The position numbers and the translations under genes are program-made. The notes beneath the pieces were generated by a model. It searched no databases and was not told the DNA's origin. It saw nothing but the letters and a program-made list of their open reading frames with translations. 64,000 nucleotides of DNA from Candidatus Roslinia caecavium. GTDB lineage: Bacteria; Bacillota; Clostridia; Monoglobales; Monoglobaceae. The number at the start of each line of letters is the position of its first letter. Within the stretch, counting starts at the first letter, position 1. Shown here piece after piece: positions 2,779-62,647 of the stretch. The DNA lies in the NCBI GenBank assembly GCA_904419955.1, contig CAJFTO010000009.1, positions 4,298-68,297 on the forward strand, written 5' to 3'.

Positions 2779-2804
2779 TACAATAAAATTTTTCAGTTGT
2801 CAAC

Positions 2805-46519: not shown

Positions 46520-47290
46520 ATGAACCTTGCGTTTGATAATAATATTATTGAAACTTATCATTCAAGAACACAAATAGCACGAGTATTGACGGAAAATTGG
46601 GTAAATGAAAATATGTATTGTCCACGATGTGGAAATTCACATATCAAACATTTTGAGAACAATCGTCCTGTTGCGGATTTTTATTGTCCTACTTGCAATA
46701 ATGAATATGAATTGAAGAGCAAAGATGGAACTTTAGGTCATAAGATAAACGACGGTGCTTACAGTACGATGATTGAAAGAATAACGGGTAACAATAATCC
46801 TGATTTTTTCTTTATGAGTTATTCAAAACAAGAGCTAAAAGTAAAAAATTTTATTTTAATTCCCAAACACTTTTTTGTTCCTGATATTATTGAAAAACGA
46901 AAACCATTGGCACCGACTGCACGTCGTGCCGGCTGGATTGGTTGCAATATTTTGATTGACAAAATCCCTGAACAAGGGAGAATTGATATAATATCAAATG
47001 GTGAAATAGTAAACATAGAGTATGTTATAAATAAAGTAAATAAAAGCAATCGACTTGAAACAAATGATATAAATAGCCGCGGTTGGCTTATGGATATTTT
47101 GAATTGTGTTAATAATATGTCATCAAAGACATTTACATTAGAAGAAATGTATCAATTCGAGAATGTATTGCATATCAAACATCCTAAAAATAATAATATC
47201 AGACCTAAAATAAGACAGCAGTTGCAATTTTTAAGAGATAAAGGATTTATTGAGTTTTTAGGTAATGGTCAATACAAAAAAATAGTTTGA
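46520..47290 (+). CDS. DpnI-family methyl-directed (type IIM) restriction endonuclease
   Basis: ATG 46520 has AAGGAG 9 nt upstream. Collinear with my recollection of S. pneumoniae DpnI: ETYHSRTQIARVLTENWV, CPRCG, FENNRPVADFYCPTC, YELKSK, INDGAY, KPLAPTARRAGWIGCNI, RQQLQFLRDKGFIEF. Confidence 0.85.
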   Translation: MNLAFDNNIIETYHSRTQIARVLTENWVNENMYCPRCGNSHIKHFENNRPVADFYCPTCNNEYELKSKDGTLGHKINDGAYSTMIERITGNNNPDFFFMSYSKQELKVKNFILIPKHFFVPDIIEKRKPLAPTARRAGWIGCNILIDKIPEQGRIDIISNGEIVNIEYVINKVNKSNRLETNDINSRGWLMDILNCVNNMSSKTFTLEEMYQFENVLHIKHPKNNNIRPKIRQQLQFLRDKGFIEFLGNGQYKKIV

Positions 47291-47299
47291 GGTGCTACT

Positions 47300-47500
47300 A
47301 TGAAGAAATATACAATTGCGATAGAAGAAACCGTTGTAGATCAATTTGAAATAGAAGCAAATGATTTTATTGAGGCTATAGATATTGCAAAAGAAAAATA
47401 TCGTAAAGGTGAGCTTGTAGTTTCTCCTGGAGAAGTGCAATTCAGACAAATTGCTGTAATATCACCATCTTGTGATTGTACTGAATGGAGTGAATTTTAA
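47300..47500 (+). CDS. DpnD/PcfM-like small protein
   Basis: 66 aa, starting 10 nt after the DpnI-like stop, with RBS GAGGTG. Pattern MKKYTIAIEETVVDQFEIEANDFIEAIDIAKEKYRKGELVV resembles the DpnD/PcfM family. Same position as dpnD in the pneumococcal DpnI cassette. Confidence 0.6.
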   Translation: MKKYTIAIEETVVDQFEIEANDFIEAIDIAKEKYRKGELVVSPGEVQFRQIAVISPSCDCTEWSEF

Positions 47501-48156
47501 TTCATGACGCCAAATGGCGCGGGAATTGGTCGCCTTATATCCCAAGAAATATTATACTTCGATATTCTAAAGAGGGAGAGCTTGTATTAGATCAATTCGC
47601 CGGCGGCGGCACTACTCTTATTGAAGCGAAGCTTTTAAATCGGGATATAATCGGCGTTGATGTAAATGATGCGGCGCTTGACAGATGCAGAGAAAAAACA
47701 GATTTTGATTATGAACCTGCGAAAGGAAAAGTGCATATAAAAAAAGGCGATGCAAGAAATCTTGATTTTATACACGATGATAGTATTGATTTAATATGTA
47801 CGCATCCGCCGTATGCGAATATTATCAAATACAGCGACGGAATTGATGGAGATTTGTCACAATTAAAAATTAAAGACTTTCTTGGAGAAATGAATAAGGT
47901 TGTAGCTGAAAGCTATCGGGTGCTTAAAAATGACAAGTTTTGTGCTGTTCTGATGGGTGATACACGTCAAAAAGGACATATGATACCGATGTCTTTTGAG
48001 GTGATGCGTATTTTTGAGGATGCGGGGTTTAAATTGAAAGAGCTGATCATAAAAGAACAGCATAATTGCAAGGCAACAGGGTATTGGAAAACAAATAGCG
48101 TGAAATATAATTTTTTGCTGATTGCACACGAGTATTTGTTTGTGTTTAGAAAGTGA
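47494..48156 (+). CDS. SAM-dependent amino-methyltransferase (DNA N6A/N4C type) without a canonical start codon; possibly frameshifted or 5'-truncated
   Basis: The frame is open from 47494. Motif I VLDQFAGGGTTLIEA, then GVDVN and GDARN, motif IV CTHPPY. The first in-frame ATG/GTG/TTG is GTG 47731, downstream of motif I. ATG 47504 is in a different frame and stops after 24 codons. Confidence 0.55.
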   Translation: MLIHDAKWRGNWSPYIPRNIILRYSKEGELVLDQFAGGGTTLIEAKLLNRDIIGVDVNDAALDRCREKTDFDYEPAKGKVHIKKGDARNLDFIHDDSIDLICTHPPYANIIKYSDGIDGDLSQLKIKDFLGEMNKVVAESYRVLKNDKFCAVLMGDTRQKGHMIPMSFEVMRIFEDAGFKLKELIIKEQHNCKATGYWKTNSVKYNFLLIAHEYLFVFRK

Positions 48157-48166
48157 GGTGCGAACA

Positions 48167-48940
48167 TTGAATTTTATACATCATGATTTAGGTAATCTTG
48201 AAAAAGGAAGAATAGTTGAAATTGTTCTTCAAGGAAATGCTGCAAATGTGCAGCTATTAGACTCATCAAATTTTAGCAGTTATAAAAACGGAAAACGCTA
48301 TCGTTATATAGGAGGACTTGCGAAAAAATCTCCAATTCGTTTACAAACAACGCATTATAGCCATTGGCATGTAGCGGTTGATCTGCGCGGATTAGGTGGT
48401 AATGTGAAAAGTTCTGCCCGTGTTTTGCCCAAAGCTCTACCAGCAATCAATCAACAACCATTAGCTTCGATGCCTTCTTTACTACATAATCGCGGTTTAG
48501 GGATAGATGTGGACGTTGATATCGAACCAGAGTACGATGTTTTCATATCTCATGCTTCAGAAGATAAGGATGCAGTGGTGCGCCCTTTAGCTAACGCTTT
48601 GCGAGACAAAGGCATAAAAGTGTGGTATGATGAATTTGAAATGAAAATTGGTGACAGTCTGCGAAGAAAAATAGATAAAGGTCTTGCAAACAGCCGGTTT
48701 GGTATCGTGGTTATATCTAAAGATTTTATTAAAAAAGGCTGGACTAATTATGAGTTAGATGGTATTATTACCAAGGCTATATCAGGAGAACAGATCGTAC
48801 TCCCAATTTGGCACAATATTACCAAAAAGGAGGTAATTGATTTTAGCCCTTCTTTGGCAGATAAATTAGCTCGTAATACGGCTATCAACACTATTGATGA
48901 GATCGCTTCGGAAATAGCTGACTTAATTCAATCGGCATAA
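48167..48940 (+). CDS. DUF1883-like N-terminal domain fused to a TIR domain
   Basis: TTG 48167 follows GTGAGGTG, 10 nt after the methyltransferase stop. The N-terminus reads NFIHHDLGNLEKGRIVEIVLQGNAANVQLLDSSNF..YIGGLAKKSPIRL..HWHVAVDL. TIR hallmarks are YDVFISHASEDKD, VWYDEFEMKIGDSL, GIVVISKDF and WTNYEL (candidate catalytic Glu). Confidence 0.8.
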   Translation: MNFIHHDLGNLEKGRIVEIVLQGNAANVQLLDSSNFSSYKNGKRYRYIGGLAKKSPIRLQTTHYSHWHVAVDLRGLGGNVKSSARVLPKALPAINQQPLASMPSLLHNRGLGIDVDVDIEPEYDVFISHASEDKDAVVRPLANALRDKGIKVWYDEFEMKIGDSLRRKIDKGLANSRFGIVVISKDFIKKGWTNYELDGIITKAISGEQIVLPIWHNITKKEVIDFSPSLADKLARNTAINTIDEIASEIADLIQSA

Positions 48941-49076
48941 CCTACAGATAGAAAGGAAAGCCAAAATTATTACATCCATTATTCAACAAAGTCTGAAAAT
49001 TTAATGGGTCTATCCCGTATTTTGGAGTTTGCACAAAACGCGGGATAGATCCTCCAAGTGTGAAAAAACGCGTATA

Positions 49077-49247
49077 TTATTGCTTCTTACACCCGTTCTT
49101 TTCGCATGTAATAGCTTGAGGTGTTTCAACCCAATCTTCAGGATTATCATCTATTCTGGCGCCACAACCAGTATAATTTCCTTTTCTTACATGAATTTTG
49201 CCATTTTCAGACTTGCTTGTGTCTTTTCCGATATATTTTATGTTCAC
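49077..49247 (-). CDS. 56-aa Cys-containing small protein of unknown function
   Basis: GTG start 5 nt after GGGAGGTG. Sequence VNIKYIGKDTSKSENGKIHVRKGNYTGCGARIDDNPEDWVETPQAITCEKNGCKKQ. Below the ORF-track cutoff. Convergent with the TIR gene. Confidence 0.5.
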   Translation of the reverse strand: MNIKYIGKDTSKSENGKIHVRKGNYTGCGARIDDNPEDWVETPQAITCEKNGCKKQ

Positions 49248-49509
49248 ATCTTCACCTCCCTTCTTTTTGTGAGATTGTTTATAAATTGATTAGATTTTGC
49301 TTGATACAAAGTCAAATTTTTAAATTATTTCGTATTACTTTGTAGACTTCTTAAAATATTATTCGTTCTTTGATAATCATAGCTTATGTCTAACCATCAT
49401 ATTATTTATTATAACATATGAGTTTAAGTTAGTCAACTGAAAAAGATAATAAATTTCAAAAAATTATTTGCAATTATCTAACAAGTGATGTATTATTAAA
49501 TTAATTTGA

Positions 49510-49713
49510 GCGACAAAAGGAATCTTCATCACTACGGCTCAATTCTCAAAAGAGGCGCTTGATTTTGCCAAAAAGCAACTACATAGCAAAATTGTCCTCG
49601 TAGACGGGAAACAGCTGACGAAACTCATGATAGATTACGATCTCGGCGTATCTACTGTCGCGACGTACAAGGTCAAACGTATCGACTCGGATTTCTTTAA
49701 TGAAGACGTATGA
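49510..49713 (+). pseudogene. C-terminal remnant of an Mrr-type (type IV) restriction endonuclease
   Basis: Reads GIFITTAQFSKEALDFAKKQLHSKIVLVDGKQLTKLMIDYDLGVSTVATYKVKRIDSDFFNEDV, which parallels the E. coli Mrr C-terminus (GVFITTSGFT..VLVDGERLVHLMIENEVGVS..DMDYFE). No upstream coding continuation (stop at 49507). GC is visibly higher than its surroundings. Confidence 0.7.
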
Positions 49714-49888
49714 TCATATCGACGCGTTTAGAAAATGAAAATTTGTACGTTTGGCACTTTTTATCGGAATCGTGCGCGTTCCGGCTCGGCTTCCAATTTT
49801 GTTGACCATGCGAATAGATTTTTTTAATCCATATGCTAAAATATTCAATATCGTTAACAAATAAATTTAAAAGTCTATATAATTTCAT

Positions 49889-49928
49889 CGCGCCTTCGCG
49901 GATCGTCCGGGAGGCGCGCAATTTTTTT
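49889..49928 (+). terminator. GC-rich rho-independent terminator downstream of the mrr remnant
   Basis: Stem cgcgccttc / gggaggcgcg followed by caattttttt. Confidence 0.6.
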
Positions 49929-50395
49929 ACCTTGGTTAAAAACTTTCAAAATTATTTGCGTTGATATTCTCGGCCTGAGAGTATATAATAGTAATTGCTT
50001 AAACTGCGCGCTCAAAGTTATACGGCCGCGTAGCCGTCCGCTACGGCGGCGTTAGGTTTCGGACGGATATTATAAAAGTTCGAGGAAGTATGGCTTCAAA
50101 GCGCTCATTTAGGGTATGGCTGAACGAATGTTGAAAAATACTTATAGATTTTTATGTAAATAGAATAAGAGGTTAGTATATAAACTAAATATATATAATG
50201 CTAAAATATATTTGATAACATAATGTTAACTCATCAATGGCCGAGTAGATTTGTCGACAGTCTTTGTAGAATGATAACGGGGAGCTGATATTACATTTTT
50301 TGTTCTCAAATAGGGTTTAGATTATTATATTTATCATTTATTACCCAGCTAATTATAGTTAGTTTGTATAAAAATAAAAAAGGAGTTGTGAAAAA

Positions 50396-51235
50396 TTGAA
50401 AATCATAACAGTTGAATTGATAGAAAATTTCAAAAATTTTTTATTTAATGAAGAAAAGGCGTTTGCAACTATTGAGAAATATGTGCATGACGTATTGAAT
50501 TTTAAAATGTGGCTATCGGGATCTGTCGTCACAAAAACAGAAGTGTTAAGATATAAGCGAGTATTAACAGAAAAATATGCGCCAACAAGCGTTAATTCTA
50601 TTATATCTTCTCTGAACAGCTTTTTCTCATATAACGAATGGTACGAATGTAAAGTTAAAACGCTTAAAATTCAACGACAGATTTTTATTAGTAAAGATAG
50701 AACGCTTACTAAAGCCGAATATGAAAGACTGCTTGCCGCGGCAAAGTATAAGGGGGACGAAAGACTATATTTACTTATGCAAACAATATGCTCTACGGGT
50801 ATTAGAGTTTCTGAATTGCGATTTGTGACAGTAGAAGCTGTTAAAAGCGGTCAGGCGATTATTAGCTGTAAAGGAAAATTGCGAGTAGTAATGCTTACAA
50901 GATTACTTTGTAAGATGCTTAAAGCTTATATAAAGGAAAATAAAATTAAACGCGGTCCTATTTTCATTACAAGAACAGGGAAACCGTTAGACCGTAGTAA
51001 TATATGGAAATTATTAAAAGGTTTATGTGAAAGAGCCGGCGTTTCAAAGAATAAGGTGTTTCCGCATAATTTGCGCCATTTATTCGCAAGAACATTTTAT
51101 TCATTACAAAAAGATATTATTAGACTTGCAGATATTCTTGGACACACAAGCGTAAATACAACCCGAATTTATACGATAGAAAGCGGAGAAGTTCACAGAC
51201 AACAGATGCAAGAACTTGGACTATTGAGATGTTAA
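50396..51235 (+). CDS. tyrosine site-specific recombinase (XerC/D-like integrase/invertase)
   Basis: 279 aa with a TTG start 10 nt after AAGGAG. SAM-like N-domain. Catalytic contexts TGIRVSEL (Arg), HNLRHLFA (His-x-x-Arg) and LGHTSVNTTRIYT (His...Tyr). Confidence 0.85.
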   Translation: MKIITVELIENFKNFLFNEEKAFATIEKYVHDVLNFKMWLSGSVVTKTEVLRYKRVLTEKYAPTSVNSIISSLNSFFSYNEWYECKVKTLKIQRQIFISKDRTLTKAEYERLLAAAKYKGDERLYLLMQTICSTGIRVSELRFVTVEAVKSGQAIISCKGKLRVVMLTRLLCKMLKAYIKENKIKRGPIFITRTGKPLDRSNIWKLLKGLCERAGVSKNKVFPHNLRHLFARTFYSLQKDIIRLADILGHTSVNTTRIYTIESGEVHRQQMQELGLLRC

Positions 51236-51237
51236 AT

Positions 51238-51267
51238 AAATTAACTACATAATTTGTCTTATGTTGT
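51238..51267. repeat. IR-L, 30-bp perfect inverted repeat arm
   Basis: aaattaactacataatttgtcttatgttgt. Begins 3 nt after the recombinase stop codon. Confidence 0.9.
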
Positions 51268-51452
51268 ATAAATGGTTAAACTATATGTAATTGCACTTTA
51301 TTAATATAGCAGAAATTTGTCGCTTTGTCAATAATTAGAGTTTAATTTAAAGAAATTTATTTAAATATTACAATAATAGATGCAAAAATCCAGACCAATG
51401 TAATAAGCGATAAGCTTCATTGGTCTAAAAGTCGTTATTGTTGTTGCTTATC

Positions 51453-51481
51453 TTGCTTTATTCGCAATATTGAGATATAAA
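51453..51481 (+). promoter_or_regulatory. promoter-like element inside the IR-bounded segment, currently facing the downstream operon
   Basis: TTGCTT (51453-51458), 17-nt spacer, TATAAA (51476-51481). Confidence 0.35.
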
Positions 51482-51507
51482 ATTATATTTTTTATAACGT
51501 CAACTTA

Positions 51508-51537
51508 ACAACATAAGACAAATTATGTAGTTAATTT
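51508..51537. repeat. IR-R, 30-bp perfect inverted repeat arm
   Basis: acaacataagacaaattatgtagttaattt is the exact reverse complement of 51238..51267. Confidence 0.9.
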
Positions 51538-52175
51538 TATGTTTTTTTAATATTATATATCGAACATTATATAAATTGGGGAAAAATTGAATTTTCGGTA
51601 TTAATATAAAAACGAAGATATTATAATACTATTGATGTAATATTAACTAAGTAGGAACTATATAAATAAATATTTTAGGAGTTTAATGAATATATATATA
51701 AATTTAATATTTATTAGACGAATTTTAGATATAATTTATATGACGTTTAACAGCATATTTTGTTTATATTAGTATAAAAAAGTTTTTAATAGCAACTGAA
51801 TTTAGAATGTCAGCGATTTTATATGGGTTGACTGCATATACGGTAAATACGCTAATAATATGATTAAAATGCAATTTAGGTTTAAAGATCTTAATAAATA
51901 AGAATAGAGTTGCTATGAAGACTGCTTTTTAGATTATAGATGAAAATTATGACGCATAACAAACTTTTTGGTGTATGGGGGATTACGCAAAATGTTTATT
52001 GCTGTATTTATACTGAGCTTTATATAAAAACAATTATACTGTGAAAGTCGTTATGCAGTCAAAGGTAGTTGAAAATGAATAATCTGATGAGTTGATAAAA
52101 TATAACAATCAAGAGCCTTATTAATAGAGTTTTAAAAACTGATTTGGTTTATTGGTTATTTGGAGAGGTTGGCAT

Positions 52176-52850
52176 ATGAAATTCAGAAACGAGTTAAAAC
52201 ACCATGTTACAGAATTTGATTTAATTGGACTTCGGCAAAGATTAAAGTTTATTGCTGAAAGAGATATTCATGCAAATGAAAATGGGATATACACCGTTAA
52301 AAGCTTATATTTTGATAATTGCTACGACAAAGCTTTAGTGGAAAAAATAGCGGGATATTCTAAAAAAGAAAAGTTTAGAATCAGATACTATAACGACGAT
52401 ACAAGTTTTATTCGCTTAGAGAAAAAAAGCAAGATCGGAGGAATGTGTTTAAAGAATAGTTGTTTAATTACTAAAGAGCAAGTAGATAAAATTATTGATT
52501 TGGATGTTTCTTGGATGGAGTTTGCTGAAGAGGAATTATTGGTTGAACTCTGGGCGAAAATGCAGTACCAATTATTGCGTCCTAAAAATATTGTTATATA
52601 TACAAGAGAGGCTTATACCTATAGGCCTGGGAATGCTCGTGTGACAATCGACTCTGATATATACGGAGAAAGCGATATTACGGGATTTTTTGATGACGAC
52701 TGGACGGGTATCAGAGTATTTCCAATGAGCATTTTGGAAGTAAAGTGGGATGAATTTTTACCTCAAATTATCAGGGACGCCGTTCAACTTGGTAATATTC
52801 AAGCACAAAATTTTTCAAAATATGCTGCGGCAAGAGTCGATGCATTTTAA
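52176..52850 (+). CDS. VTC-domain (polyphosphate polymerase / triphosphate-tunnel-like) protein
   Basis: ATG 52176 has GGAGAGG 7 nt upstream. MKFRNELKHHV..YTVKSLYFDN..KEKFRIRYYNDD..ILEVKWDEFLPQIIRD..FSKYAA matches bacterial VTC-domain proteins as I recall them. Confidence 0.75.
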   Translation: MKFRNELKHHVTEFDLIGLRQRLKFIAERDIHANENGIYTVKSLYFDNCYDKALVEKIAGYSKKEKFRIRYYNDDTSFIRLEKKSKIGGMCLKNSCLITKEQVDKIIDLDVSWMEFAEEELLVELWAKMQYQLLRPKNIVIYTREAYTYRPGNARVTIDSDIYGESDITGFFDDDWTGIRVFPMSILEVKWDEFLPQIIRDAVQLGNIQAQNFSKYAAARVDAF

Positions 52851-52916
52851 TATACGACAATTGGAACAGAAACGTTGAGTATATAATATGTTAAATTTAT
52901 GAGGGAGGATAAAAAT

Positions 52917-53597
52917 ATGACGACGTTTAATGACATTTTTAAATCGGATTTTTTAAATTCAACAAATTTGAACAGTTTTTCAGTAGTAGACACGCTGATT
53001 GCACTTGGGTTAGCGTTTGTTATAGGTATTTTTATATATCTTATATATAAGAAAACTTATAAAGGAGTTATGTATTCGGCGACTTTTGGAGTTTCGTTGC
53101 TGGCGATGTCTATGATTACGACGTTAGTTATATTAGCGGTAACCGCTAATATCGTTCTCTCTTTGGGTATGGTTGGCGCGTTGTCGATTGTTAGATTCAG
53201 AACGGCGATCAAGGAGCCGATGGATATAGCGTTTCTTTTTTGGGCGATCGCGGCCGGTATAGTATTAGGTGCGGGATTTATCCCTCTTGCTATTATAGGC
53301 TCGGTTATCATAGGCGCGGTTATTCTTATTTTTGCCAATATAAAAACAATTGGAGCGACGCCGTATATACTTATTGTAAATTGTGCGTTTCAAGCCGAAC
53401 GCAACGTTAATTATGTTATAAAACAGGAGTCTCGCAAATATCTTCTAAAATCAAAAACAGTTACCCCAAAAGGTTTAGAGTTGACATACGAAGTAAGAAT
53501 TCGAGATAAAGAAGCTTACGCTGTGAATAAATTAATAAATTTAGAAGGCGTAGGGAACGCCGTCCTGGTTAGCTATAATGGAGAATATATGTCATAG
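52917..53597 (+). CDS. DUF4956-family membrane protein
   Basis: ATG 52917 follows GAGGGAGG. Multiple TM helices. Family-typical LSIVRFRTAIKEPMDIAFLFWAIAAGI. Confidence 0.7.
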   Translation: MTTFNDIFKSDFLNSTNLNSFSVVDTLIALGLAFVIGIFIYLIYKKTYKGVMYSATFGVSLLAMSMITTLVILAVTANIVLSLGMVGALSIVRFRTAIKEPMDIAFLFWAIAAGIVLGAGFIPLAIIGSVIIGAVILIFANIKTIGATPYILIVNCAFQAERNVNYVIKQESRKYLLKSKTVTPKGLELTYEVRIRDKEAYAVNKLINLEGVGNAVLVSYNGEYMS

Positions 53598-53610
53598 TTG
53601 GAGTTGTATT

Positions 53611-55533
53611 ATGTTAGGATCAAAAAAATTTGAAAAAATAATAGTATGGCTTGTGATTATGGCGTTGGTTTTTTCATTGGTTATAGTATGTTTTCCAAAT
53701 ATATTTTCTCGGATTTCAAAAGATAGGATTGAAGAAGAGTATCCGGTTAAGATTTTTGAAAAAGACGTCGTTAATATAAAAATTACGGCTGATGAAAACG
53801 ATTGGAATGGCATGCTGGAAAATCGAATGTCAAAGCCCTATATCTCATGCGATATAGAAATCGATGGAAAAGAATTTAAAAATGTCGGATTGAGACCGAA
53901 GGGAAATTCAAGTTTAACGAGTATTCAGGGAGACAGAATAAGCTATAGATTGGACTTCGATCATTACATCGATAATCAAACTTGTTACGGCTTGGAGCAA
54001 ATGGCTTTGAATAATTTACAAGCCGACGCCACATATATGAAGGATTATATCGCTTACGATTTGATGGCATATGAAGGCGTAAACGCACCGCTACATACAT
54101 TTGCGTTTATAACGATAAACGAACAGCCTTTTGGAGTTTATCTGGCGGTCGAGGTATATGACGAAGACTATTTGTCAAGAGTTTACGACGATATAAATAT
54201 TGAGCTATACAATGTAAAAAATTCGGGTATGGATGAGTTTGAAAACGCGATTGTCGATCCTGAAACCGGCACAGTGATAGAATCTCAGGGGGTAGGAGAA
54301 GTTATGAATATGGGCGGTCCAGGCGGGCCTCCGCCGCAGGGCGGTCCCATGCCGCCTGGGGGTCAGTCTCCTATGCCTCCGCCAAACGGGCAAGTTCCTG
54401 ATGCGGTCGGTATGCGGGCGCCAAATGAGGAAAACATACCACAACCGCCTCCGGGGTCTGAAAGTGGAGGCGGAGATTTAGTTTATGTTGACGACTCAAC
54501 AGAAAGTTACAGCGCTATATTTGCAAACGCAGTCTCCAAGCGCGCGAATGCAGAAGATTTTGCAAGAGTTATTAGAGCGATAAAATATTTAAATAAAGAA
54601 AACGTCTCTAATGAAGAGTTAGAACAATACTGGGATATCGACGCTGTATTAAGATATTTGGCGGTTCACGCTTTTATGGTTAATGGCGATAGTTATACAG
54701 GTAATATGATGCAAAACTATTTTTTAGCTGAGCGAGACGGTAAGATTACTATTCTACCGTGGGATTATAATTTATCGTTCGGCGCGTTTGGAGGAGGTCC
54801 GGGCGGCGCGCCTCCTGAAATGCAGATTGATAGCGACAAGATTGTCGGATCTGATGTTGAAACAGCTCAAGTAAATAATGAAACGATAGAGGCAATAAAT
54901 CATCCCATAGACACGCCCACCATAGGGGTATCTATGGAATCAAGACCGCTCGTTTCAGTTTTGCTGAGCAGGGACGATTATAAGGAAAAATACCATCAGT
55001 ATTTAGATGAATTAACTATATATGCGTCGGGCGATTTTATTAACAAACTTGAAGCGGTTGAAAAGGCTATCTATCCGTATATTGAGAGAGAAACGGTTTC
55101 TTTCTTTACGCCCGAAGAACATAAAGAGGCCTTTAAAGTATTGAAGGATTTTTTAGAACTTCGTTGCCGAAGCATTCAATGCCAACTGAATGGAGAAATT
55201 CCGTCAGAATTGGAGCTACAGAATGGCGCTGATTTAATAACTGCAGATTTTTCTATTAGCGAGATGGGATCTATGGGCGGACCGGGAGATATGCTGCCGG
55301 GAGAAAATGGAGAAGGCGCAATGGCTCCGCCGCAGCCGCCGGGAGAAAATGGACAGGGCGTAATGGCTCCGCCGCAGCCGCCGAATGACGATGGTCAAGG
55401 AGGAATGGTTCCGCCGCCGGGTATGTCTGGAACGATGCAAAATGAGAGTAATAATGATATTACAATCGCGATTGCTTTAGTTATTTTATGCATCATGTTT
55501 ATTGGCGTTAAATTATTTAAGCGAAATTACTAG
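53611..55533 (+). CDS. CotH-family atypical kinase, N- and C-terminally membrane anchored, with two Pro/Gly-rich inserts
   Basis: ATG 53611 has GGAG 7 nt upstream. N-terminal anchor. CotH-like IDGKEFKNVGLRPKGNSSL..YRLDFDHY..LNNLQADATYMKDYIAYDL. Pro-rich tracts near 54300-54480 and 55264-55440, the latter with a 42-bp tandem duplication at 55300-55383. C-terminal TM. Confidence 0.75.
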   Translation: MLGSKKFEKIIVWLVIMALVFSLVIVCFPNIFSRISKDRIEEEYPVKIFEKDVVNIKITADENDWNGMLENRMSKPYISCDIEIDGKEFKNVGLRPKGNSSLTSIQGDRISYRLDFDHYIDNQTCYGLEQMALNNLQADATYMKDYIAYDLMAYEGVNAPLHTFAFITINEQPFGVYLAVEVYDEDYLSRVYDDINIELYNVKNSGMDEFENAIVDPETGTVIESQGVGEVMNMGGPGGPPPQGGPMPPGGQSPMPPPNGQVPDAVGMRAPNEENIPQPPPGSESGGGDLVYVDDSTESYSAIFANAVSKRANAEDFARVIRAIKYLNKENVSNEELEQYWDIDAVLRYLAVHAFMVNGDSYTGNMMQNYFLAERDGKITILPWDYNLSFGAFGGGPGGAPPEMQIDSDKIVGSDVETAQVNNETIEAINHPIDTPTIGVSMESRPLVSVLLSRDDYKEKYHQYLDELTIYASGDFINKLEAVEKAIYPYIERETVSFFTPEEHKEAFKVLKDFLELRCRSIQCQLNGEIPSELELQNGADLITADFSISEMGSMGGPGDMLPGENGEGAMAPPQPPGENGQGVMAPPQPPNDDGQGGMVPPPGMSGTMQNESNNDITIAIALVILCIMFIGVKLFKRNY

Positions 55534-55557
55534 CAAAAACAGGAGTTGAAAATTCCT

Positions 55558-56115
55558 ATGGAACAAGATAATGGATATGTATTGGAGCAATCAAGAGACG
55601 ACAAATTAAAGATGTTAGGCGCGCTTTGTTATAATTTATATATAGACGGCGTTATGATTTTTCCTGAGATGAATGAAACGGTTAATGATATAAAAAACGT
55701 GTTAACTTATTTGCTGGTCTTGAGGAAAAACAATATCAACGCTGATTATTTGAAGATACAGGAATCCGGTTTGAGCGAAAAGATTCAAGAGTTGGGATGT
55801 ATTTGCTATAACCTTTATGTCGATAGTAAATTATTTAATAGTAAAGTACTATCGCTATGCGATTCGATATCGTCAATAAATCATGAGATAAAAAATGGTT
55901 TAGAAGCGGCGTCGCAAGGCAGTTCTGAGGTTCAAGAGCGTGAAGATCTCAAGAAAATGAAAGGCGAGTATAGAAATGTAACTAAAAGTAAGCTGAAGGT
56001 AATCTGTCCGTATGGAATGGAACCTATTCCAATTAATTATAAAAAGTGCGCGTGCGGTTATAAAAATAGAGCTTCGGCAAAATACTGCGGCAAATGCGGC
56101 GCAAAATTAGCGTAA
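55558..56115 (+). CDS. hypothetical cytoplasmic protein with an internal duplication and a C-terminal double zinc ribbon
   Basis: Two related segments, LGALCYNLYIDGVMIFPEMNETVNDIKNV and LGCICYNLYVDSKLFNSKVLSLCDSISSI. The tail reads CPYG..CACGYKN..YCGKCGAKL. Confidence 0.6.
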   Translation: MEQDNGYVLEQSRDDKLKMLGALCYNLYIDGVMIFPEMNETVNDIKNVLTYLLVLRKNNINADYLKIQESGLSEKIQELGCICYNLYVDSKLFNSKVLSLCDSISSINHEIKNGLEAASQGSSEVQEREDLKKMKGEYRNVTKSKLKVICPYGMEPIPINYKKCACGYKNRASAKYCGKCGAKLA

Positions 56116-56128
56116 GGAGGAAGATGGA

Positions 56129-56833
56129 ATGAGTTTAGACGATATTATAAGACTTTTTGCATGTATTTCATTAATTCTTGGCGCGGTAGAGTGCTTTGCC
56201 GGATTTAAAATCATGAAAGCGACTCTTTCGATTTGGGGGCTTATAATTGGCGCGGCGCTTGGAGTTTTAATAGGCGTCTCAGCAGATAATACGATATTGG
56301 GATTTATGTTTGTACTGCTGTTTGGTATAGGATTAGCGGTTTTATCTTTTAAACTATATTTAGCTGGAATATTTATACTTACGGCGTTTTTGTCAACGGT
56401 AGCGATATATATATTATTTGAAAATTTGTTTATCGCTCTATTAATCGCCGCTATAGTAGGAATACTGGCCATATATTTTGTAAAGCCTGTAGTAATCGTA
56501 ACTACCTCGTTCTCAGGAGCAGGGATTATATTATCTTCAGCATATATAATAATGGATTTGGGGGTTAACGCTAATCCTATAATCACCGCAATTTTATGGA
56601 TACCAATGGCTTTGGCGGGTATTGGGTGTCAATATATTACAACACAGAGCTCAAAGAATGAGAGGAGCGGGATAAGATTTTCTCAAAGATTACCAAATCC
56701 ATCGAGAACGTTTAGTGAAAGAAAATATCCCGGGATGCAGAGAGCGTATAGAAATTTTTGTATTAATTGCGGTTGCGAGCTATTTGGTATAACAGGTAAG
56801 TGTCCGCGATGTGGATTTAGTTTTGACGACTAA
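56129..56833 (+). CDS. polytopic membrane protein (DUF4203/TMEM198-like) with a C-terminal cytoplasmic zinc ribbon
   Basis: AAGGAGG 8 nt before the ATG. About 6-7 TM helices. The tail reads FCINCGCEL..KCPRCGFSF. Confidence 0.65.
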   Translation: MSLDDIIRLFACISLILGAVECFAGFKIMKATLSIWGLIIGAALGVLIGVSADNTILGFMFVLLFGIGLAVLSFKLYLAGIFILTAFLSTVAIYILFENLFIALLIAAIVGILAIYFVKPVVIVTTSFSGAGIILSSAYIIMDLGVNANPIITAILWIPMALAGIGCQYITTQSSKNERSGIRFSQRLPNPSRTFSERKYPGMQRAYRNFCINCGCELFGITGKCPRCGFSFDD

Positions 56834-56845
56834 GAGGAAATAGAT

Positions 56846-58309
56846 ATGAGAAAACGTTTAAACAATAAAATTATATTTATGACTGCTTTAATTAGCTTGA
56901 TAAGTTTTTCATTTATAGGTATACCCAACGCGTATGCGTCTTATTATAAAATACCCGAACAGCAAAACTTTGATCCTAATATAGCCGCAAATGAGATAGA
57001 AGCGATAGTGAATCAAAAGTCTGTTATTAGTAGCAGCGCTATCGATAATATAATCTATATTGATGGAGCGGCAGTCGTTCAAAAGTATAATGAGGCAATA
57101 TCAGAAATCAAAGAATATGTCGACAAGCTTAATGGTAGCGGTATGTATCTAAATCGAGATTTAGTAAACGTAGTAACTATCCAAGCGGATGGGATAAATA
57201 TTTCGGAATATGTTGAAATATATATTGATTCAGCGGCTTTAGATCAAATAGCAAATATAGATACGCTGAAGATAACCTTAGAAAATAGTAACGAGTATAT
57301 TTCATTGAACAATGAAAGTATAAGTTATATCGCGGCCAACTATAATGAATTTAGAGTTCAAGTAAAAAGTCTATCCGATACTTATACAATACGTTTTATA
57401 GATAAAACAAATAGTATAATAAGTAAGTACGACGTTAATATAAAAGTTGGATTGCCGGCAAGTCACAGCGAGCAAACGGTCTATCTGTTTACGAATAATA
57501 CTCAAGAAAATTGGGGAGGTCAATATAACAGCGTTGACGGTTCGATAGAGTTTATGACTCGGTATAGCGGCGAATATAACGTCGCCTCTCCCGAAATCGT
57601 TATAGAAGACATAAATAGTTTAGATGAATACGAAAAACAGGCGATCAGGTTTATGGTTGTCAGAGGATATTTTGAAGTAGACGATAAGAGGTTTGGCCCT
57701 GACGACGTCTTAACAAGATATGATTTTGCAGAGTCTTTGGTAAGGATGTTTTTTGCCTTAGACAGCGATGCGCAATGTTCTTTTACCGATGTGGATAAAA
57801 CGTATTATAGATATGTAGCAGCTTCGGAACAGAGTAATATTGTTCGTGGATTTGACGACGGAACATTTAGAGGCAATGAGAACGTAACGGTTGAGCAGGT
57901 GATCGCGCTAACAGCTCGTACTATAAATCAAAAGAATGGGTATGTTTATCCTGAAAGCATAGATAAGTATTTGAATTTCACAGACGATAATGTTATAGAC
58001 GAGTGGGCTAAAAAAGAAGTGGCTTTAGCTATTAGAGAGGGAATTTATTTTAATGATATGAACTTAAAATTTATGGATAGTATTTCGCGTAAAGACGCTG
58101 CCGTTGTGCTATATAGACTATTTATGATTATGAATAATACCCCGAAACCTACGGACGTTATTGAATATAGCGTCGATGAATGCTATAATCATAAAACGTT
58201 TTGGAATATGACGAGCGCGATTGTTATTGGAGCGACGGTTACTTGCGTTGATATGGCGGCTCTGGGACTATCGATCTTTCTTATAAAAAAGAAGAAAAGA
58301 AGAGCATAA
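56846..58309 (+). CDS. secreted protein with three SLH-like repeats and a C-terminal TM anchor
   Basis: Signal peptide ..GIPNAYA. SLH-like segments are FMVVRGYFEVDD..LTRYDFAESLVRMF, FTDVDKTYYRYVAASEQSNIVRGFDDGTFRGNENVTVEQV and FTDDNVIDEWAKKEVALAIREGI. Ends with a TM helix plus KKKKRRA. Confidence 0.65.
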   Translation: MRKRLNNKIIFMTALISLISFSFIGIPNAYASYYKIPEQQNFDPNIAANEIEAIVNQKSVISSSAIDNIIYIDGAAVVQKYNEAISEIKEYVDKLNGSGMYLNRDLVNVVTIQADGINISEYVEIYIDSAALDQIANIDTLKITLENSNEYISLNNESISYIAANYNEFRVQVKSLSDTYTIRFIDKTNSIISKYDVNIKVGLPASHSEQTVYLFTNNTQENWGGQYNSVDGSIEFMTRYSGEYNVASPEIVIEDINSLDEYEKQAIRFMVVRGYFEVDDKRFGPDDVLTRYDFAESLVRMFFALDSDAQCSFTDVDKTYYRYVAASEQSNIVRGFDDGTFRGNENVTVEQVIALTARTINQKNGYVYPESIDKYLNFTDDNVIDEWAKKEVALAIREGIYFNDMNLKFMDSISRKDAAVVLYRLFMIMNNTPKPTDVIEYSVDECYNHKTFWNMTSAIVIGATVTCVDMAALGLSIFLIKKKKRRA

Positions 58310-59100
58310 TGGTATCGATTAAGAGTGAGATAATTAGAAAAGAAAAGTTTATGTTTGATATTTCTTATATCAACGAACGAGGCGGAAGGGTTGTCAATGA
58401 AGATTCTATATTAGTTGAAGATATGGAAGAAAAAATATTTATTTCTATAGCTGATGGTTTAGGCGCGCACGGCGGCGGAGATCTTGCTTCTAAAGTAGCG
58501 ATCGACGTTGCCAGAAAGGAATATGCGCGGATTAAAAAAATCGATCAAAAAAATATATATAGGATTTTTGAAGTAATTAATGAAGCGATAGTAGCTCAAC
58601 AAACGGAAGAATTGAAGATGAAAACAACATTATCGTGCGTTCTGTGTAGAAACAAATATATATATTCAGCCCATCTGGGGGATACGCGCGTGTATTTTTT
58701 TAAGGATAATAGATTACGATTCATGACGAAGGATCACAGCGTCGCTTATGAAGAAATCACGAAAAATCACGGCTCTTTAGAAGATATAAGAAAAGATCCG
58801 AAAAGGCATATTTTAAAAGCCGCGTTAGGGGTAGGAAAAATTAGACAGCCGGATATTTTTAAACAGAAAATTAAGAATGACGCCGCAGTTTTAATTTGTT
58901 CCGACGGCTTTTGGGAATACGTTAACGAGAATGAAATGATCGAAACATTGACCGATACGATAACCGCTCGCGAGTGGCTTGGAGCAATGATGAAATATCA
59001 TTCGGAAAAAGCGGATATGTTTAATGACAATTATTCGGCAATTTGCCTAAGAATTACAAAAAATAAAGGAGGAAAAACTTTATGGAATACAAAGGTATGA
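58309..59100 (+). CDS. PP2C-family Ser/Thr phosphatase (1)
   Basis: The ATG overlaps the upstream stop (TAATG); an alternative start is at 58351. Motifs IADGLGAHGGGDLAS and LICSDGFWEY. Confidence 0.8.
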   Translation: MVSIKSEIIRKEKFMFDISYINERGGRVVNEDSILVEDMEEKIFISIADGLGAHGGGDLASKVAIDVARKEYARIKKIDQKNIYRIFEVINEAIVAQQTEELKMKTTLSCVLCRNKYIYSAHLGDTRVYFFKDNRLRFMTKDHSVAYEEITKNHGSLEDIRKDPKRHILKAALGVGKIRQPDIFKQKIKNDAAVLICSDGFWEYVNENEMIETLTDTITAREWLGAMMKYHSEKADMFNDNYSAICLRITKNKGGKTLWNTKV

Positions 59101-60497
59101 ATTTATGCGACTTTTGTTTTGAACCTATCAGACCAGGATGCATTTGTACCAACTGCGGTCTTACCCATGAAAATTATAATGCCGAAGCTGGATTGCTAAT
59201 GCCGGGAACTAATCTGTTAGGTAAGTACATTATCGGCCGTGTATTAGGGAGGGGAGGCTTTGGCGCAACGTATTTAGCTTATTCAAGCGAGCGCAATAAA
59301 GTAGTGGCTATTAAGGAATATTATCCTACCGGCATTGCCAATCGAGCAAAAGGCGAGGAAAAAATTTCTATCGTTTCCGCCGAAAAAAGAAAGGTGTTTG
59401 AAAAGGGTGCGAATAGGTTTTTTGAAGAAGCTAAGACTATGTCCAAATTCAATACAAATAAGAATATAGTATCAGTGTATGAATTTTTCTATGCTAACGA
59501 CACCGTATATTATTCGATGGAGTATTTGAAGGGAATCGATCTTAAAGGATATATAAACAAAAAGGGCGGCAGGTTAAGCGAAGCGGAAGCGGTAACGATA
59601 ATGAGAGGCGTTTGCGAAGCTTTGGTAGCGGTACATAGCACCCAAACTCTTCACAGAGATATATCGCCGGATAATATTTTTATTTGTACAAACGGCGATG
59701 TGAAGCTAATTGATTTTGGAGCTGCAAAGCAAGTTATAGGCGATGCGCAGCAAGTGTATTCAGTGGTTGTTAAACAAGGCTTCGCGCCGGCGGAACAGTA
59801 TAAGAGTACCGGAAAACAAGGCGTGTGGACGGATATTTATGCTGTTGGGGCTTCAATGTATTATGCGGTCACAGGTAAAATTCCTCCTGACGCAATGAAT
59901 AGAGTAGAGCATCCAGACATTGTATTTGATCCGGCGTTAAACATTTCGCCTCAGTTTGCCAACATAATAAAAAAATGTTTACAGAGTAAGATTGAGGATC
60001 GTTATCAAAGCGCGATAGAGTTACTTGGGGCGCTGAGCGAATTAAATATTCAGAATGTCGCGATCGGCGGCGCCGAATACGTTCAAAATATATATAACGG
60101 AGTATCTTCAGGTCTGCAGGGAAACGCTGTGAACTTTGGCGGTAATAACGAGTTTGTCGCTCAACCGCAGACGGGGTACAATCCGTATGAGAATAATAAC
60201 AGCCAGTACCCTAATTCGCAGATACAGGCTCAAAATGTTTCATATTACCCGCCGTCCGGATACCCGCAATCCGGATATCCTCAATCTGGATATCCTCAGT
60301 CGCAGCATCAAATCTCGCAGTATGGTGAAAGTAAAGAAAAATCCGGAATAATTAAAGGTCTGATAATTGGCGTATGCGCATTAATAATAATAGCGTTAAT
60401 AATTATTCTTATCGTTAATTTGGTAGGTCCTCAACAGCCTATGCCGCCGCAGCCGCCGATTGGCGGACAGCCTATGCAGCCTATGCCGCCTCAGTAA
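59082..60497 (+). CDS. Hanks-type Ser/Thr kinase with N-terminal zinc ribbon, Q/P/Y-rich linker, one TM helix and a short Pro-rich exterior tail
   Basis: AAGGAGG 9 nt before the ATG; 19-nt overlap with the PP2C gene. CDFCFEPI..CICTNCGL, GRGGFGATY, VAIKEY, HRDISPDNIF, DFGAAK, (SGYPQ)x3, TM, then PQQPMPPQPPIGGQPMQPMPPQ. Confidence 0.85.
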   Translation: MEYKGMNLCDFCFEPIRPGCICTNCGLTHENYNAEAGLLMPGTNLLGKYIIGRVLGRGGFGATYLAYSSERNKVVAIKEYYPTGIANRAKGEEKISIVSAEKRKVFEKGANRFFEEAKTMSKFNTNKNIVSVYEFFYANDTVYYSMEYLKGIDLKGYINKKGGRLSEAEAVTIMRGVCEALVAVHSTQTLHRDISPDNIFICTNGDVKLIDFGAAKQVIGDAQQVYSVVVKQGFAPAEQYKSTGKQGVWTDIYAVGASMYYAVTGKIPPDAMNRVEHPDIVFDPALNISPQFANIIKKCLQSKIEDRYQSAIELLGALSELNIQNVAIGGAEYVQNIYNGVSSGLQGNAVNFGGNNEFVAQPQTGYNPYENNNSQYPNSQIQAQNVSYYPPSGYPQSGYPQSGYPQSQHQISQYGESKEKSGIIKGLIIGVCALIIIALIIILIVNLVGPQQPMPPQPPIGGQPMQPMPPQ

Positions 60498-60535
60498 CGA
60501 GCAAAGCGGGTTTAAATATGGAAGGGGTGATGTGA

Positions 60536-61423
60536 TTGGCGTTTATGAATAATAAGTATACTTCCGGTTCAGAGAAGTCTGATTCTTCAGAAAATAATAA
60601 TTCTGAAAACATCAAGGCTGGGGTCGAATTAAAGCTTACTTCAAACGCTTCAATGTATATAAATACAGGAAATAGTCAAAATCAAGGCGCCAGACCATAT
60701 CAAGAAGACTCATTTGGTTATTCAAATATCATAGACAGCAATGTTGTCTCGAAAAAAGGAGTTTTCGCGATTTTGTCTGATGGAATGGGAGGATTGACCA
60801 ATGGAAAAAACGTGGCGGATTATGTAGTGCAAACGTCTATTGCTATGTTTGATTCAATGAATCCTCAGACCGATATCAGCAAACAATTGGAGAATATAGT
60901 TGGGTACATAAATAGCAGCGTATGCGAACAGTATGGCGCCGATGATGGAAGTAGTAAAGCTGGAGCGACAATGGTTTTGGCGTATATTTTCAAAAATCGT
61001 ATTTACTGGATAACTGTTGGAGATAGTAGATTATACTGCTTCAGAAATGGTAATTTGCTACAAATGAATGAAGATCACGATTATAAGAATCAGTTGTATC
61101 GAGAGTATATAAATGAAGGCGGAAATCTTAAAGACGTCGAGGAAGACGAGCAGAAGGATAGTTTAGTTTGCTTTATTGGGAAAAAAGAGATACCTTATGT
61201 GGATGTAAGCATAAGAGGTTATAAAATTAAACCGTCAGATACATTTATTTTGTGTACAGACGGCATATATAACGGAATATCTGAAGACGCCATGAAAGAT
61301 ATACTATCGAACTGCGACGCGCAAACTGCAAGCGAGGAAATTATATCAAACGTTTTAAGTTCGAGATTTCCGGGACAAGATAATATGACCGTTATGGTTA
61401 TAAAATGTGAGAGAAATAATTAA
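60536..61423 (+). CDS. PP2C-family Ser/Thr phosphatase (2)
   Basis: TTG 60536 (or ATG 60545). Motifs AILSDGMGGLTNG, ITVGDSRLY, ILCTDGIYN and GQDNMTVMVI. Confidence 0.8.
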   Translation: MAFMNNKYTSGSEKSDSSENNNSENIKAGVELKLTSNASMYINTGNSQNQGARPYQEDSFGYSNIIDSNVVSKKGVFAILSDGMGGLTNGKNVADYVVQTSIAMFDSMNPQTDISKQLENIVGYINSSVCEQYGADDGSSKAGATMVLAYIFKNRIYWITVGDSRLYCFRNGNLLQMNEDHDYKNQLYREYINEGGNLKDVEEDEQKDSLVCFIGKKEIPYVDVSIRGYKIKPSDTFILCTDGIYNGISEDAMKDILSNCDAQTASEEIISNVLSSRFPGQDNMTVMVIKCERNN

Positions 61424-61456
61424 ATTATGTTTTAGTCTGAAAGGAAGGTTTTAGTA

Positions 61457-62647
61457 ATGAAAAAAACTAAGAGATTAAAAAGGGCGATAAGCTTAGTAGT
61501 CGTAGCGGTATTGGCGGTGTCGCTAACAATGACGGTTACAGTATCGGCGACCTCTGCGTCTGACGCGAAAAACAGCGTTGTTGCGGTTATCAGTCAGGAC
61601 GGAATGAGTTATGGAACAGGGTTTGCTATTGGGGAAGTTGGAAAGCCGGTTGAATATATTGTTACAAACAATCATGTAGTACAAGGCGATATTGGATACA
61701 CAACGGCAACAGTTGCATTTGATTTAGCTTCTAATGAAATGATGCTTGCAAACGTATATTTTTATGACGCGGCAAAGGATATAGCCGTTTTAAAGTTACC
61801 GCAGGCTACTGACAAAAGACAGGCGATGGTACTTTGTACAATGGAAAATGTCGATCCGGACGACGAGTTTGCAGCTTTAGGTTATCCTGGAAATCAGATA
61901 ACTGATTGGCCTAAGTATAATATTGACGATATTACAATTACAAAGGGCGGTATCAAAAAGGTCGACAGAGTTAACGGACTTGACGTTTATATGTTGGATC
62001 TTATAATTACACATGGTAATTCGGGCGGCCCTCTCGTTAATTCTCAGGGAGAAGTTGTTGGTATTAATACGTTTGGTTTAAATAACGACAACTATGCAAT
62101 AGCTATCGACGAGCTTTTAAAGGTTATTGATACCGATAGGATCCCCGTTACGTTGCATGGAGGTATTAATTGGTTCTTAGTTGCAGGCGGAATAGTAGCG
62201 ATTATAATTATTGCATTAGTCATAATTCTTATCGTTCGCAAAACGGGATACGGCAGAAGCAACGACGTTGGAACTCAACCGGTTCCGCCTCCTGTGAATA
62301 ATGCGACGAAACAACAGACTCCGCCGGTAAATAAGGCGAGCGCAAGAATTATAGCTATTGGAGGAACGCTTAACGGTAAGAGATATTCTGTTTCCGGCAC
62401 GGTGAAAATCGGCAGAGACGCTACAAAATGCGCTATAGCTTTTCCTGTAAACACACAAGGAGTAAGCGCCGTTCATTGTGAAATTTCATTCGATGGAACA
62501 GTGTGCTATGTAAAAGACTTGAATTCGAGTTATGGCACGTTCGCCATCGACGGGAAGAAGCTGGAGCCCAATGTACCTCAAATACTAAAATCGGGCGAAA
62601 AGTTCTATTTGGCAAGTCCTGAAAATACGTTTGAGGTAAGATTTTAG
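61457..62647 (+). CDS. bitopic protein: extracytoplasmic trypsin-like (S1/Trypsin_2) protease, TM helix, cytoplasmic FHA domain
   Basis: Signal/anchor at the N-terminus. Catalytic contexts TNNHVV (His), DIAVLKL (Asp) and HGNSGGPLVN (Ser). TM WFLVAGGIVAIIIIALVIILIV. FHA reads VKIGRDATKCAIAF..VSAVHCEI..CYVKDLNSSYGTF. Confidence 0.8.
   Translation: MKKTKRLKRAISLVVVAVLAVSLTMTVTVSATSASDAKNSVVAVISQDGMSYGTGFAIGEVGKPVEYIVTNNHVVQGDIGYTTATVAFDLASNEMMLANVYFYDAAKDIAVLKLPQATDKRQAMVLCTMENVDPDDEFAALGYPGNQITDWPKYNIDDITITKGGIKKVDRVNGLDVYMLDLIITHGNSGGPLVNSQGEVVGINTFGLNNDNYAIAIDELLKVIDTDRIPVTLHGGINWFLVAGGIVAIIIIALVIILIVRKTGYGRSNDVGTQPVPPPVNNATKQQTPPVNKASARIIAIGGTLNGKRYSVSGTVKIGRDATKCAIAFPVNTQGVSAVHCEISFDGTVCYVKDLNSSYGTFAIDGKKLEPNVPQILKSGEKFYLASPENTFEVRF

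Follow-up and report, generated by a model that had tools for sequence, protein, structure and literature searches.

Does the short stretch of DNA behind a tyrosine recombinase gene of Candidatus Roslinia caecavium, a member of the Monoglobaceae (Clostridia), act as a phase-variable promoter switch, and if so, in which state was it captured? We have addressed this question for 64,000 nucleotides (nt) of contig CAJFTO010000009.1 (assembly GCA_904419955.1, positions 4,298 to 68,297 of the forward strand). This whole stretch is called the window here, and coordinates are counted from its first nucleotide. A first-pass annotation had noted a recombinase gene followed at once by a perfect inverted repeat (IR), and had proposed that the enclosed segment switches a downstream operon with CotH and kinase genes. 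Our analysis makes it likely that this is a self-contained inversion switch, in which the adjacent recombinase inverts a promoter segment of approximately 246 bp that controls a ten-gene operon, and that the window shows the switch in its OFF state.

The recombinase gene (50396..51235, plus strand) has a TTG start preceded by an AAGGAG ribosome-binding site and encodes an Xer-like protein of 279 amino acids (aa) with an N-terminal SAM-like domain. Its match to PF00589 (E=5.9e-29; 101.5 bits against a cutoff of 27.1) places it in the tyrosine recombinase family. The left repeat arm, IR-L (51238-51267), begins with the third base after the recombinase stop codon, and the right arm, IR-R (51508-51537), is its exact reverse complement over all 30 nt (30/30, 100%), 240 nt away; every coordinate given in the earlier annotation for the gene and the repeats holds. 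The 30-mer occurs in the 64-kb window as this single pair even if three mismatches are allowed, against an expectation of 0.00 from 100 shuffles. Each arm harbors a core site. The left one (51244-51267) reads ACT-ACATAA-TTTGTC-TTATGT-TGT with an 18-nt core at 51247-51264, and the right one (51508-51531) reads ACA-ACATAA-GACAAA-TTATGT-AGT with its core at 51511-51528; a third core site is absent from the window. Judged by its sequence, each arm is composed of two symmetric half-sites for recombinase binding around a 6-nt crossover spacer.

The strongest evidence that these sites are recombined comes from related loci. We compared 80 loci of species-representative genomes, which together with the window make 81 distinct loci, and searched for sites up to 1 kb past the recombinase stop codon. 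At least two copies of ACC-ACATAA-N6-TTATGT-GGT were present in 68 of the 81, the first of them usually 3-30 nt past the stop codon. In all 68, the spacer of the partner site is the exact reverse complement of the first one, although there are 41 distinct spacers and none is palindromic; when the right-hand spacers were shuffled among the loci, the mean number of matches was 4.2 and the maximum 10. Because the same asymmetric spacers stand in inverted orientation, recombination by a tyrosine recombinase will lead to inversion, and excision is excluded. The locus thus has the makeup of an inverton, that is, a short segment between inverted repeats that act as inverted core sites. This covariation, together with the natural inversions in close relatives described below, supports the proposal of a phase-variable promoter switch that is served by the recombinase next to it.

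Some loci carry more sites than two. Two or three additional core sites, which share the spacer and follow each other at intervals of 32-33 nt, lie by the left or the right site in L094 (10085-10440) and L110 (2048-2427), and such arrays are also found in L020, L024, L028, L031, L037, L044, L059, L076 and L084; they may provide alternative inversion end-points or accessory binding sites. Furthermore, some genomes contain two to three paralogous recombinase-switch modules with differing spacers (JAZTXF01 with L008, L009 and L051; JBGVEN01 with L006 and L063; JAZNEB01 with L059 and L061), and the difference in spacers may stop the modules of one genome from recombining with each other. A second metagenome scan, with a site carrying the spacer TCGAAA, yielded just 26 loci, of which 11 were informative, without a single pair.

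What does the segment carry, and which way does it face? The invertible segment (51268..51507) measures 240 bp between the IRs and 246 bp between the 18-nt cores, and it is homologous to those of 67 related loci, where it is found in both orientations relative to the recombinase. Read on one strand, it consists of a site, an A/T-rich stretch, a dyad of the form AGACC(AATG)-N9-21-(CATT)GGTCT, approximately 60 nt, a promoter of the form TTGACA-17-TGnTATAAT, approximately 38 nt, and the second site. In the window, this conserved sigma-A-type promoter lies on the minus strand (51303..51331), with the -35 element TTGACA at 51331-51326, a 17-nt spacer, TGc, and the -10 element TATATT at 51308-51303. 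It agrees with the consensus at 11 of 12 positions and has an extended -10 (TG), which makes it the second-best match of the whole region, and its counterparts score 9-12/12 in each of the 68 segments, where they keep a stereotyped distance from the site. Transcription is predicted to start near 51296 on the minus strand and would enter the recombinase gene at its 3' end. With the conserved promoter on the minus strand and directed antisense into the recombinase gene, the operon is most likely OFF in the sequenced state, which reverses the earlier assignment of the sequenced orientation as ON. By homology and promoter position, the promoter points toward the recombinase in 46 loci, the window included, and toward the downstream genes in 18, with four loci being ambiguous.

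Inversion would map position x to 102775 - x, such that the -35 element would come to lie at 51444-51449 and the -10 element at 51467-51472 on the plus strand, with the mirrored start near 51479 on that strand. Transcripts from the flipped promoter would then cross IR-R and the leader before reaching the operon, and the junctions predicted for the flipped state are TTTGTCTTATGTTGT joined to TAAGTTGACGTTATAA and CATATAGTTTAACCATTTAT joined to ACAACATAAGAC.

Precise inversions of this kind are indeed found among relatives. The loci L011 and L014 have collinear flanks that are 97.3% and 98.5% identical, and their 255-bp segments are 99.6% identical solely as reverse complements. In the lineage P0007, whose recombinase is 73% identical to that of the window and whose first site likewise begins 12 nt past the stop codon (spacer TTTGCC, segment 245 bp), the segment occurs both ways round at 100% identity beside the same protein in different samples (L111, L113, L114 and L116 in one orientation, L112, L115, L119 and L120 in the other). 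Moreover, contigs end inside the switch in 11 of the 80 species loci (no more than 400 bp from the stop codon) and in four of ten P0007 contigs, which would be explained by mixed orientations breaking the assemblies, with paralogous sites being another possible cause. We infer that the window copy still flips, and that its promoter is active and would drive the operon once flipped.

Three contigs from as many samples of the Joint Genome Institute (JGI) show a peculiar arrangement (L130, L131 and L132, at approximately 2619-3244). Past the right site, the contig continues as the reverse complement of its own recombinase 3' part (97.9%), so that two convergent recombinase copies surround one switch. 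Either the assembler folded back at the IR in a mixture of strains, or the inverted duplication is real. The architecture also extends to distant relatives with approximately 50% recombinase identity, which are cultured species that carry it on large secondary replicons: in Monoglobus pectinilyticus (NZ_OY725740.1, at approximately 33.6-34.8 kb), the same site (ACATAATTTTGATTATGTTGTA) sits in perfect 22-nt arms that are 252 nt apart, and in Pusillibacter faecalis MM59 (pMM59_01, at approximately 430.2-431.8 kb), the IR is a diverged one of 26 nt, its arms are separated by 268 nt, and a gene for an SLH protein comes next.

In the mechanism that we propose, recombinase dimers would bind the two inverted core sites within the 30-bp repeats, each site presenting the half-sites ACNACATAA and TTATGTNGT on either side of the asymmetric 6-bp spacer (TTTGTC / GACAAA). 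The segment of approximately 250 bp would form a loop, probably aided by the central dyad, and strand exchange in the 6-bp spacers would then invert approximately 246 bp. In the ON state, transcription from the promoter would reach the VTC-DUF4956-CotH-SLH-PP2C-kinase operon by way of the right site and the leader, whereas in the OFF state, which is the orientation of all five assemblies of the species, it would enter the 3' part of the recombinase gene in the antisense direction. This antisense transcription may lower recombinase expression and thus stabilize the OFF state, as would fit the 46:18 bias in orientation and the analogy with the orientational control of fimE.

The central dyad deserves separate consideration. 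In the window it has the form AGACCAATG-N17-CATTGGTCT (51392..51426) and lies 60 nt upstream of the -35 element on the promoter strand; it is found in approximately 53 of the 68 segments. Its two inner pairs covary (A-U in 27 and G-C in 14 segments for the one, A-U in 32 and G-C in eight for the other), while the outer GACC/GGTC is fixed in sequence. The segments also show a striking regularity in length, in that site-to-site distances cluster near 209, 220, 230, 241, 252, 262, 272 and 283 bp. The window segment belongs to the 243-246 bp class of this 10.6-bp series. At a period of 10.6 bp, the site-to-site distances gave a Rayleigh R of 0.84 (n=65), compared to a maximum of 0.38 in 2000 random sets, and R was still 0.81 once duplicate spacer/length pairs were removed. 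The sub-intervals are quantised as well, with R=0.77 from site to dyad centre, R=0.77 from dyad centre to the -35 element and R=0.78 from the -10 element to the site (null maxima no higher than 0.49); these statistics are somewhat inflated by the kinship of the loci, but the ladder nonetheless covers eight steps. All distances within the segment (site-dyad, dyad-promoter, promoter-site and site-site) shift in steps of approximately 10.5 bp only, across the 68 loci (L005-L084 and the window, 51247-51528).

This phasing points to an architecture at the level of the DNA itself that would keep sites, dyad and promoter at fixed rotational positions, and it is an unusually clean natural signature for a site-specific recombination system. 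Given its helical phase with the promoter and with each of the two sites, the dyad would seem to be more than an RNA terminator. As a tentative extension that we hold with less than even confidence, the family may represent a minimal, portable one-gene cassette whose inversion needs a fixed three-dimensional DNA architecture, in which a central element not described before, with either the recombinase or a host factor as its binding partner or in the form of an extruded cruciform, would let a loop of approximately 250 bp synapse, and in which the antisense promoter would bias populations to OFF.

Which genes does the switch control? Beyond the right arm, an AT-rich leader (51538..52175, plus strand; 638 nt, GC content 0.21-0.24) extends to the ATG at 52176. 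The earlier annotation had described approximately 640 nt of AT-rich DNA free of open reading frames (ORFs), and this is correct in that no ORF exceeds 36 aa. One of the short ORFs (51686-51772) encodes a hydrophobic peptide of 28 aa, MNIYINLIFIRRILDIIYMTFNSIFCLY, with AGGAG 4 nt before its ATG, and could be a leader peptide, a small membrane peptide or a chance occurrence in AT-rich DNA. Ten tightly packed genes follow (52176..62647, plus strand), whose products match, in Pfam, VTC, DUF4956, CotH kinase, a Zn-ribbon, a membrane protein, SLH, PP2C, a Ser/Thr kinase, a second PP2C and trypsin-FHA.

The assignment of this operon as the regulated cargo is supported by a second lineage, P0026 (L134/L135), in which the linkage between switch and operon is conserved. 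Its recombinase is 72% and its VTC protein 62% identical to those of the window, while the upstream context is different. The order in P0026 is recombinase, switch, TetR, VTC, a 216-aa protein, DUF4956, CotH, Zn-ribbon, a 235-aa protein, SLH, PP2C and kinase, and the promoter is aimed at the operon in all seven contigs. The CotH/kinase operon thus stands as the likely target, as the first-pass annotation had suggested. Compared to P0026, the window has no TetR gene, and it has the 638-nt leader, which lacks a recognisable remnant or known RNA. A decayed TetR gene in the leader was considered and rejected: several TetR-like proteins from downstream of related switches had weak tblastn matches that began 41 nt past IR-R (E 0.1-0.3), but a profile of 15 proteins of this kind gave nothing (E > 0.28), and neither did the TetR of the syntenic locus. 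An Rfam search of switch and leader (E <= 1) returned only two chance matches to eukaryotic snoRNAs. In L134 (1-4300), switch and operon adjoin genes for RepA_N, a phage-type integrase, a Lactamase_B/anti-Pycsar-like protein and DUF3006, and these neighbours suggest that cassette and cargo travel on or beside mobile elements.

Across the family, 53 of 62 loci have a first downstream ORF that runs in the same direction as the recombinase gene. The product of the first ORF is diverse (n=51), with 16 TetR regulators, five YpsA, four dockerin, three each of cohesin, SLH, SPFH and Zn-ribbon proteins, plus defence-like proteins. We also considered a two-way switch that would drive the genes upstream of the recombinase as well; with 48 of 65 loci having their upstream neighbour on the plus strand, however, the family is not generally built that way.

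Several observations weigh against a working promoter switch at this locus. The leader of 638 nt is an outlier, the median in related loci being 76 nt, and because it is so unusually long, the coupling between promoter and operon could be weaker or could use extra elements in the leader. The co-orientation of downstream genes (85%) is little above that of the upstream neighbours (74%). Furthermore, the window and four further, independent assemblies of the species (L001-L004) all show one orientation (5/5), and the IR 24-mer of the species was absent from the JGI metagenome collection. With regard to the dyad, a simple terminator scan gave nothing, and the dyad loops, at 9-21 nt, exceed the length usual for an intrinsic terminator.

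These points feed into several alternative explanations, of which the one that fares best is that the switch acts chiefly by means other than delivering a promoter. The dyad might serve as an orientation-dependent terminator or attenuator, comparable to cwpV of C. difficile, or the inverton might exert antisense control over the recombinase while the operon uses a promoter of its own in the leader. The compensatory changes with which the dyad is kept and the T-rich 3' side that it has on the promoter strand (median 5/10) would agree with an RNA element, the long leader is roomy enough for another promoter, and the promoter faces the recombinase in most assemblies. However, what is best conserved within the segment is a full consensus promoter whose distance from the site is fixed, a strong plus-strand promoter was not found in the leader (the best match being 9/12), and the helical phasing of the dyad to sites and promoter would be needless for an RNA element. 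We thus regard this alternative as unlikely, and it can, moreover, coexist with promoter inversion as the main function.

It could also be that the switch is a relic that has become locked in this species, with the operon being constitutively silent or driven from elsewhere. The single orientation in all five assemblies would be expected from a relic, and the atypical leader and the absence of the TetR gene that the syntenic relative has also speak for one. Yet the recombinase ORF is unbroken and keeps all six catalytic residues, and both 30-bp arms are 100% identical to each other. Furthermore, the seven contigs of P0077 also share one orientation, which argues that assemblies simply report the majority state. 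A locked switch therefore appears improbable to us.

The third alternative concerns the promoter that the first-pass annotation had named, TTGCTT-17-TATAAA, and according to which the sequenced orientation would be ON. This motif does exist on the plus strand (51453-51481), near the spot that the conserved promoter would take after inversion, but its reading as a promoter was not supported. It matches at only 8/12 positions, under the threshold of our scan, and such matches are at chance level in AT-rich DNA; overall, the region contains 14 promoter-like matches, compared to 16.0 +/- 3.8 in shuffled sequence. The part of the segment that bears the motif is unconserved in the alignment, while the opposite strand carries the 11/12 promoter with its TG that is conserved across the 68 loci. 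We consider it very improbable that this motif is functional. Finally, that the repeats are termini or attachment sites of a mobile element (an insertion sequence, a miniature inverted-repeat transposable element or an integrative element) is extremely improbable, the low GC content and defence-type genes at 45.6-53.8 kb and the RepA_N and integrase genes beside the L134 switch and operon notwithstanding, because repeat pair and recombinase each occur only once in the window, the 240-bp interior has no protein-coding content, the inverted asymmetric spacers call for inversion rather than excision, and the natural variants (L011/L014 and P0007) are precise inversions.

Promoter inversion by the adjacent enzyme hence remains the preferred explanation, which raises the question of what kind of recombinase this is. 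Residues R137, K161, H224, R227, H250 and Y259 do not vary among 31 homologues, and in an alignment they coincide with catalytic residues of XerD. The nearest solved structures are those of archaeal XerA (5hxy, 9.7e-30), an XerC-like protein (4a8e) and XerD (1a0p). However, the protein scores far under all NCBIfam Xer equivalog cutoffs, such as those for XerA (138 against 220), XerD (129 against 330) and XerC (104 against 335), and likewise under those of the FimB/FimE-type models PRK09870 and PRK09871 (31.8 and 30 bits against 221 and 222), and it thus represents a distinct Xer-like family. There are more than 8000 clusters of homologues at E <= 1e-20. The best 120 homologues are 67-77% identical and nearly all exactly 279 aa long, and they derive from gut and rumen metagenomes and metagenome-assembled genomes of Clostridia, Oscillospiraceae and Monoglobaceae. 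The 64-kb window contains no second copy of the recombinase.

How does this switch compare to known systems? In fimS of E. coli, a short segment probably requires DNA bending for synapsis, and the promoter in the OFF state points toward the recombinase gene. The resemblance is close, in that in both cases a tyrosine recombinase gene (for fimS, that of FimB/FimE) lies just upstream of an invertible promoter segment (approximately 300 bp in fimS) that is followed by an operon for surface structures, the OFF promoter of the window points back at the recombinase, and its short segment probably needs DNA bending. However, FimB and FimE comprise approximately 200 aa and lack an N-terminal core-binding domain, whereas the window protein has 279 aa and a SAM-like N-terminal domain. 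Furthermore, there is one recombinase instead of two, recombination would take place at palindromic core sites of 24 nt around a 6-nt spacer instead of 9-bp IRs, and the host belongs to the Clostridia and is of the Gram-positive type. To the extent that sequence comparison can tell, the window switch works like fimS/FimE, yet stands outside the FimB/FimE family.

RecV of C. difficile is encoded away from the several switches that it serves, one of which, cwpV, works by orientation-dependent termination. Its switches (cwpV, flgB, cmrRST) share with the window a tyrosine recombinase, short IR-flanked segments (approximately 150-200 bp and with imperfect IRs for RecV), a place upstream of surface or motility operons and a host of the class Clostridia. 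The difference in architecture sets them apart, since each switch of the window type has its own adjacent recombinase, and several such pairs per genome are possible. In Bacteroides, invertible promoters are served by Mpi, a serine recombinase that acts globally, and UpxY is often the first gene downstream. The invertible promoters of Bacteroides (Mpi/Tsr) resemble the window family in the control of surface traits in gut commensals, which is a probable role in the window, in the conserved promoter inside the inverton, and in that a regulator is often the first gene (TetR in 16 of 51 cases here), but they differ in phylum, promoter consensus and IR motifs. With the Xer recombinases (XerA, XerC/D, XerH) acting at dif, the window protein has in common the catalytic residues and the two half-sites around a spacer of 6-8 bp; the differences are that there are two inverted sites beside the gene, that several copies can occur per genome, and that the system serves gene regulation instead of the resolution of chromosome dimers.

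A further counterpart is inverton group 139 with invertase group 35 in the hCom2 community, in which 32 of 33 invertons, from 17 strains, are in Clostridia (for instance in Clostridium sp. D5 at 3525576-3525832 and in Intestinimonas butyriciproducens DSM 26588 at 1750639-1750893); the IRs are 13-25 nt long, the inner segments measure approximately 206-228 bp, and a tyrosine recombinase lies nearby in what is called a 'non-regulatable' orientation (PMC11892184). The same account reports flipping at the level of sequencing reads in cultured gut strains, with orientation ratios that moved over passages (PMC11892184). The window family is probably identical to this group, as judged by size, taxon and recombinase adjacency. 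The sections of that account considered here (PMC11892184) do not give the site anatomy, the spacer covariation, the promoter/dyad design or the helical phasing.

Upstream of the recombinase gene, the DNA from 45600 to 50395 is of low GC content (0.29-0.39, compared to 0.45-0.53 further upstream). The stretch has the look of a small defence island, with genes for a DpnI-like endonuclease (46493-47290), a truncated N6/N4 methyltransferase (47731-48156) and a DUF1883-TIR protein (48122-48940). Between the latter gene and the recombinase is a gap of 1.45 kb (48941-50395) that is poor in ORFs and has a negative GC skew, unlike the remaining window. The ORF list further contains two very large ORFs on the minus strand, at 10771-14889 (1372 aa) and 15182-21337 (2051 aa).

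An invertible promoter with an adjacent tyrosine invertase is a known kind of system, to which the window adds a new example. In contrast, the anatomy at the level of the family, namely the core-site rule, the spacer covariation, the promoter-dyad cassette, the 10.6-bp quantisation and the very wide distribution, appears to be undescribed in the literature searched; a search with the core-site motif gave chance matches only. The anatomy amounts to a rule for such switches, a 279-aa recombinase followed by two copies of ACATAA-N6-TTATGT with reverse-complementary spacers around TTGACA-17-TGnTATAAT, and this rule could be used to annotate switches and their ON/OFF state from assemblies without reads. 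The quantisation of length in steps of 10.6 bp is a clean natural experiment on the looping mechanics of very short DNA, and the cultured carriers Monoglobus pectinilyticus and Pusillibacter faecalis bring experiments within reach. The recombinase family is very large, comes almost wholly from uncultured gut Clostridia, and serves a highly diverse cargo (TetR, cohesin/dockerin, SLH and defence-like proteins).

For Candidatus Roslinia caecavium itself, the analysis means that a ten-gene operon, with a polyphosphate-polymerase-like VTC protein, DUF4956, CotH, SLH and Ser/Thr kinase/phosphatase signalling, is probably subject to phase variation and that the assembly caught it while silent, such that its expression or function, if read from the assembly alone, would be misleading. 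The triad of VTC, DUF4956 and CotH is known as an accessory cassette beside the pel loci of Gram-positive bacteria, which specify the Pel exopolysaccharide (10.1101/768473), and it is also present in a locus of C. perfringens that is rich in wall and membrane proteins (PMC2879425). Since this triad accompanies Pel loci, the switch probably varies a trait of the cell surface or the matrix.

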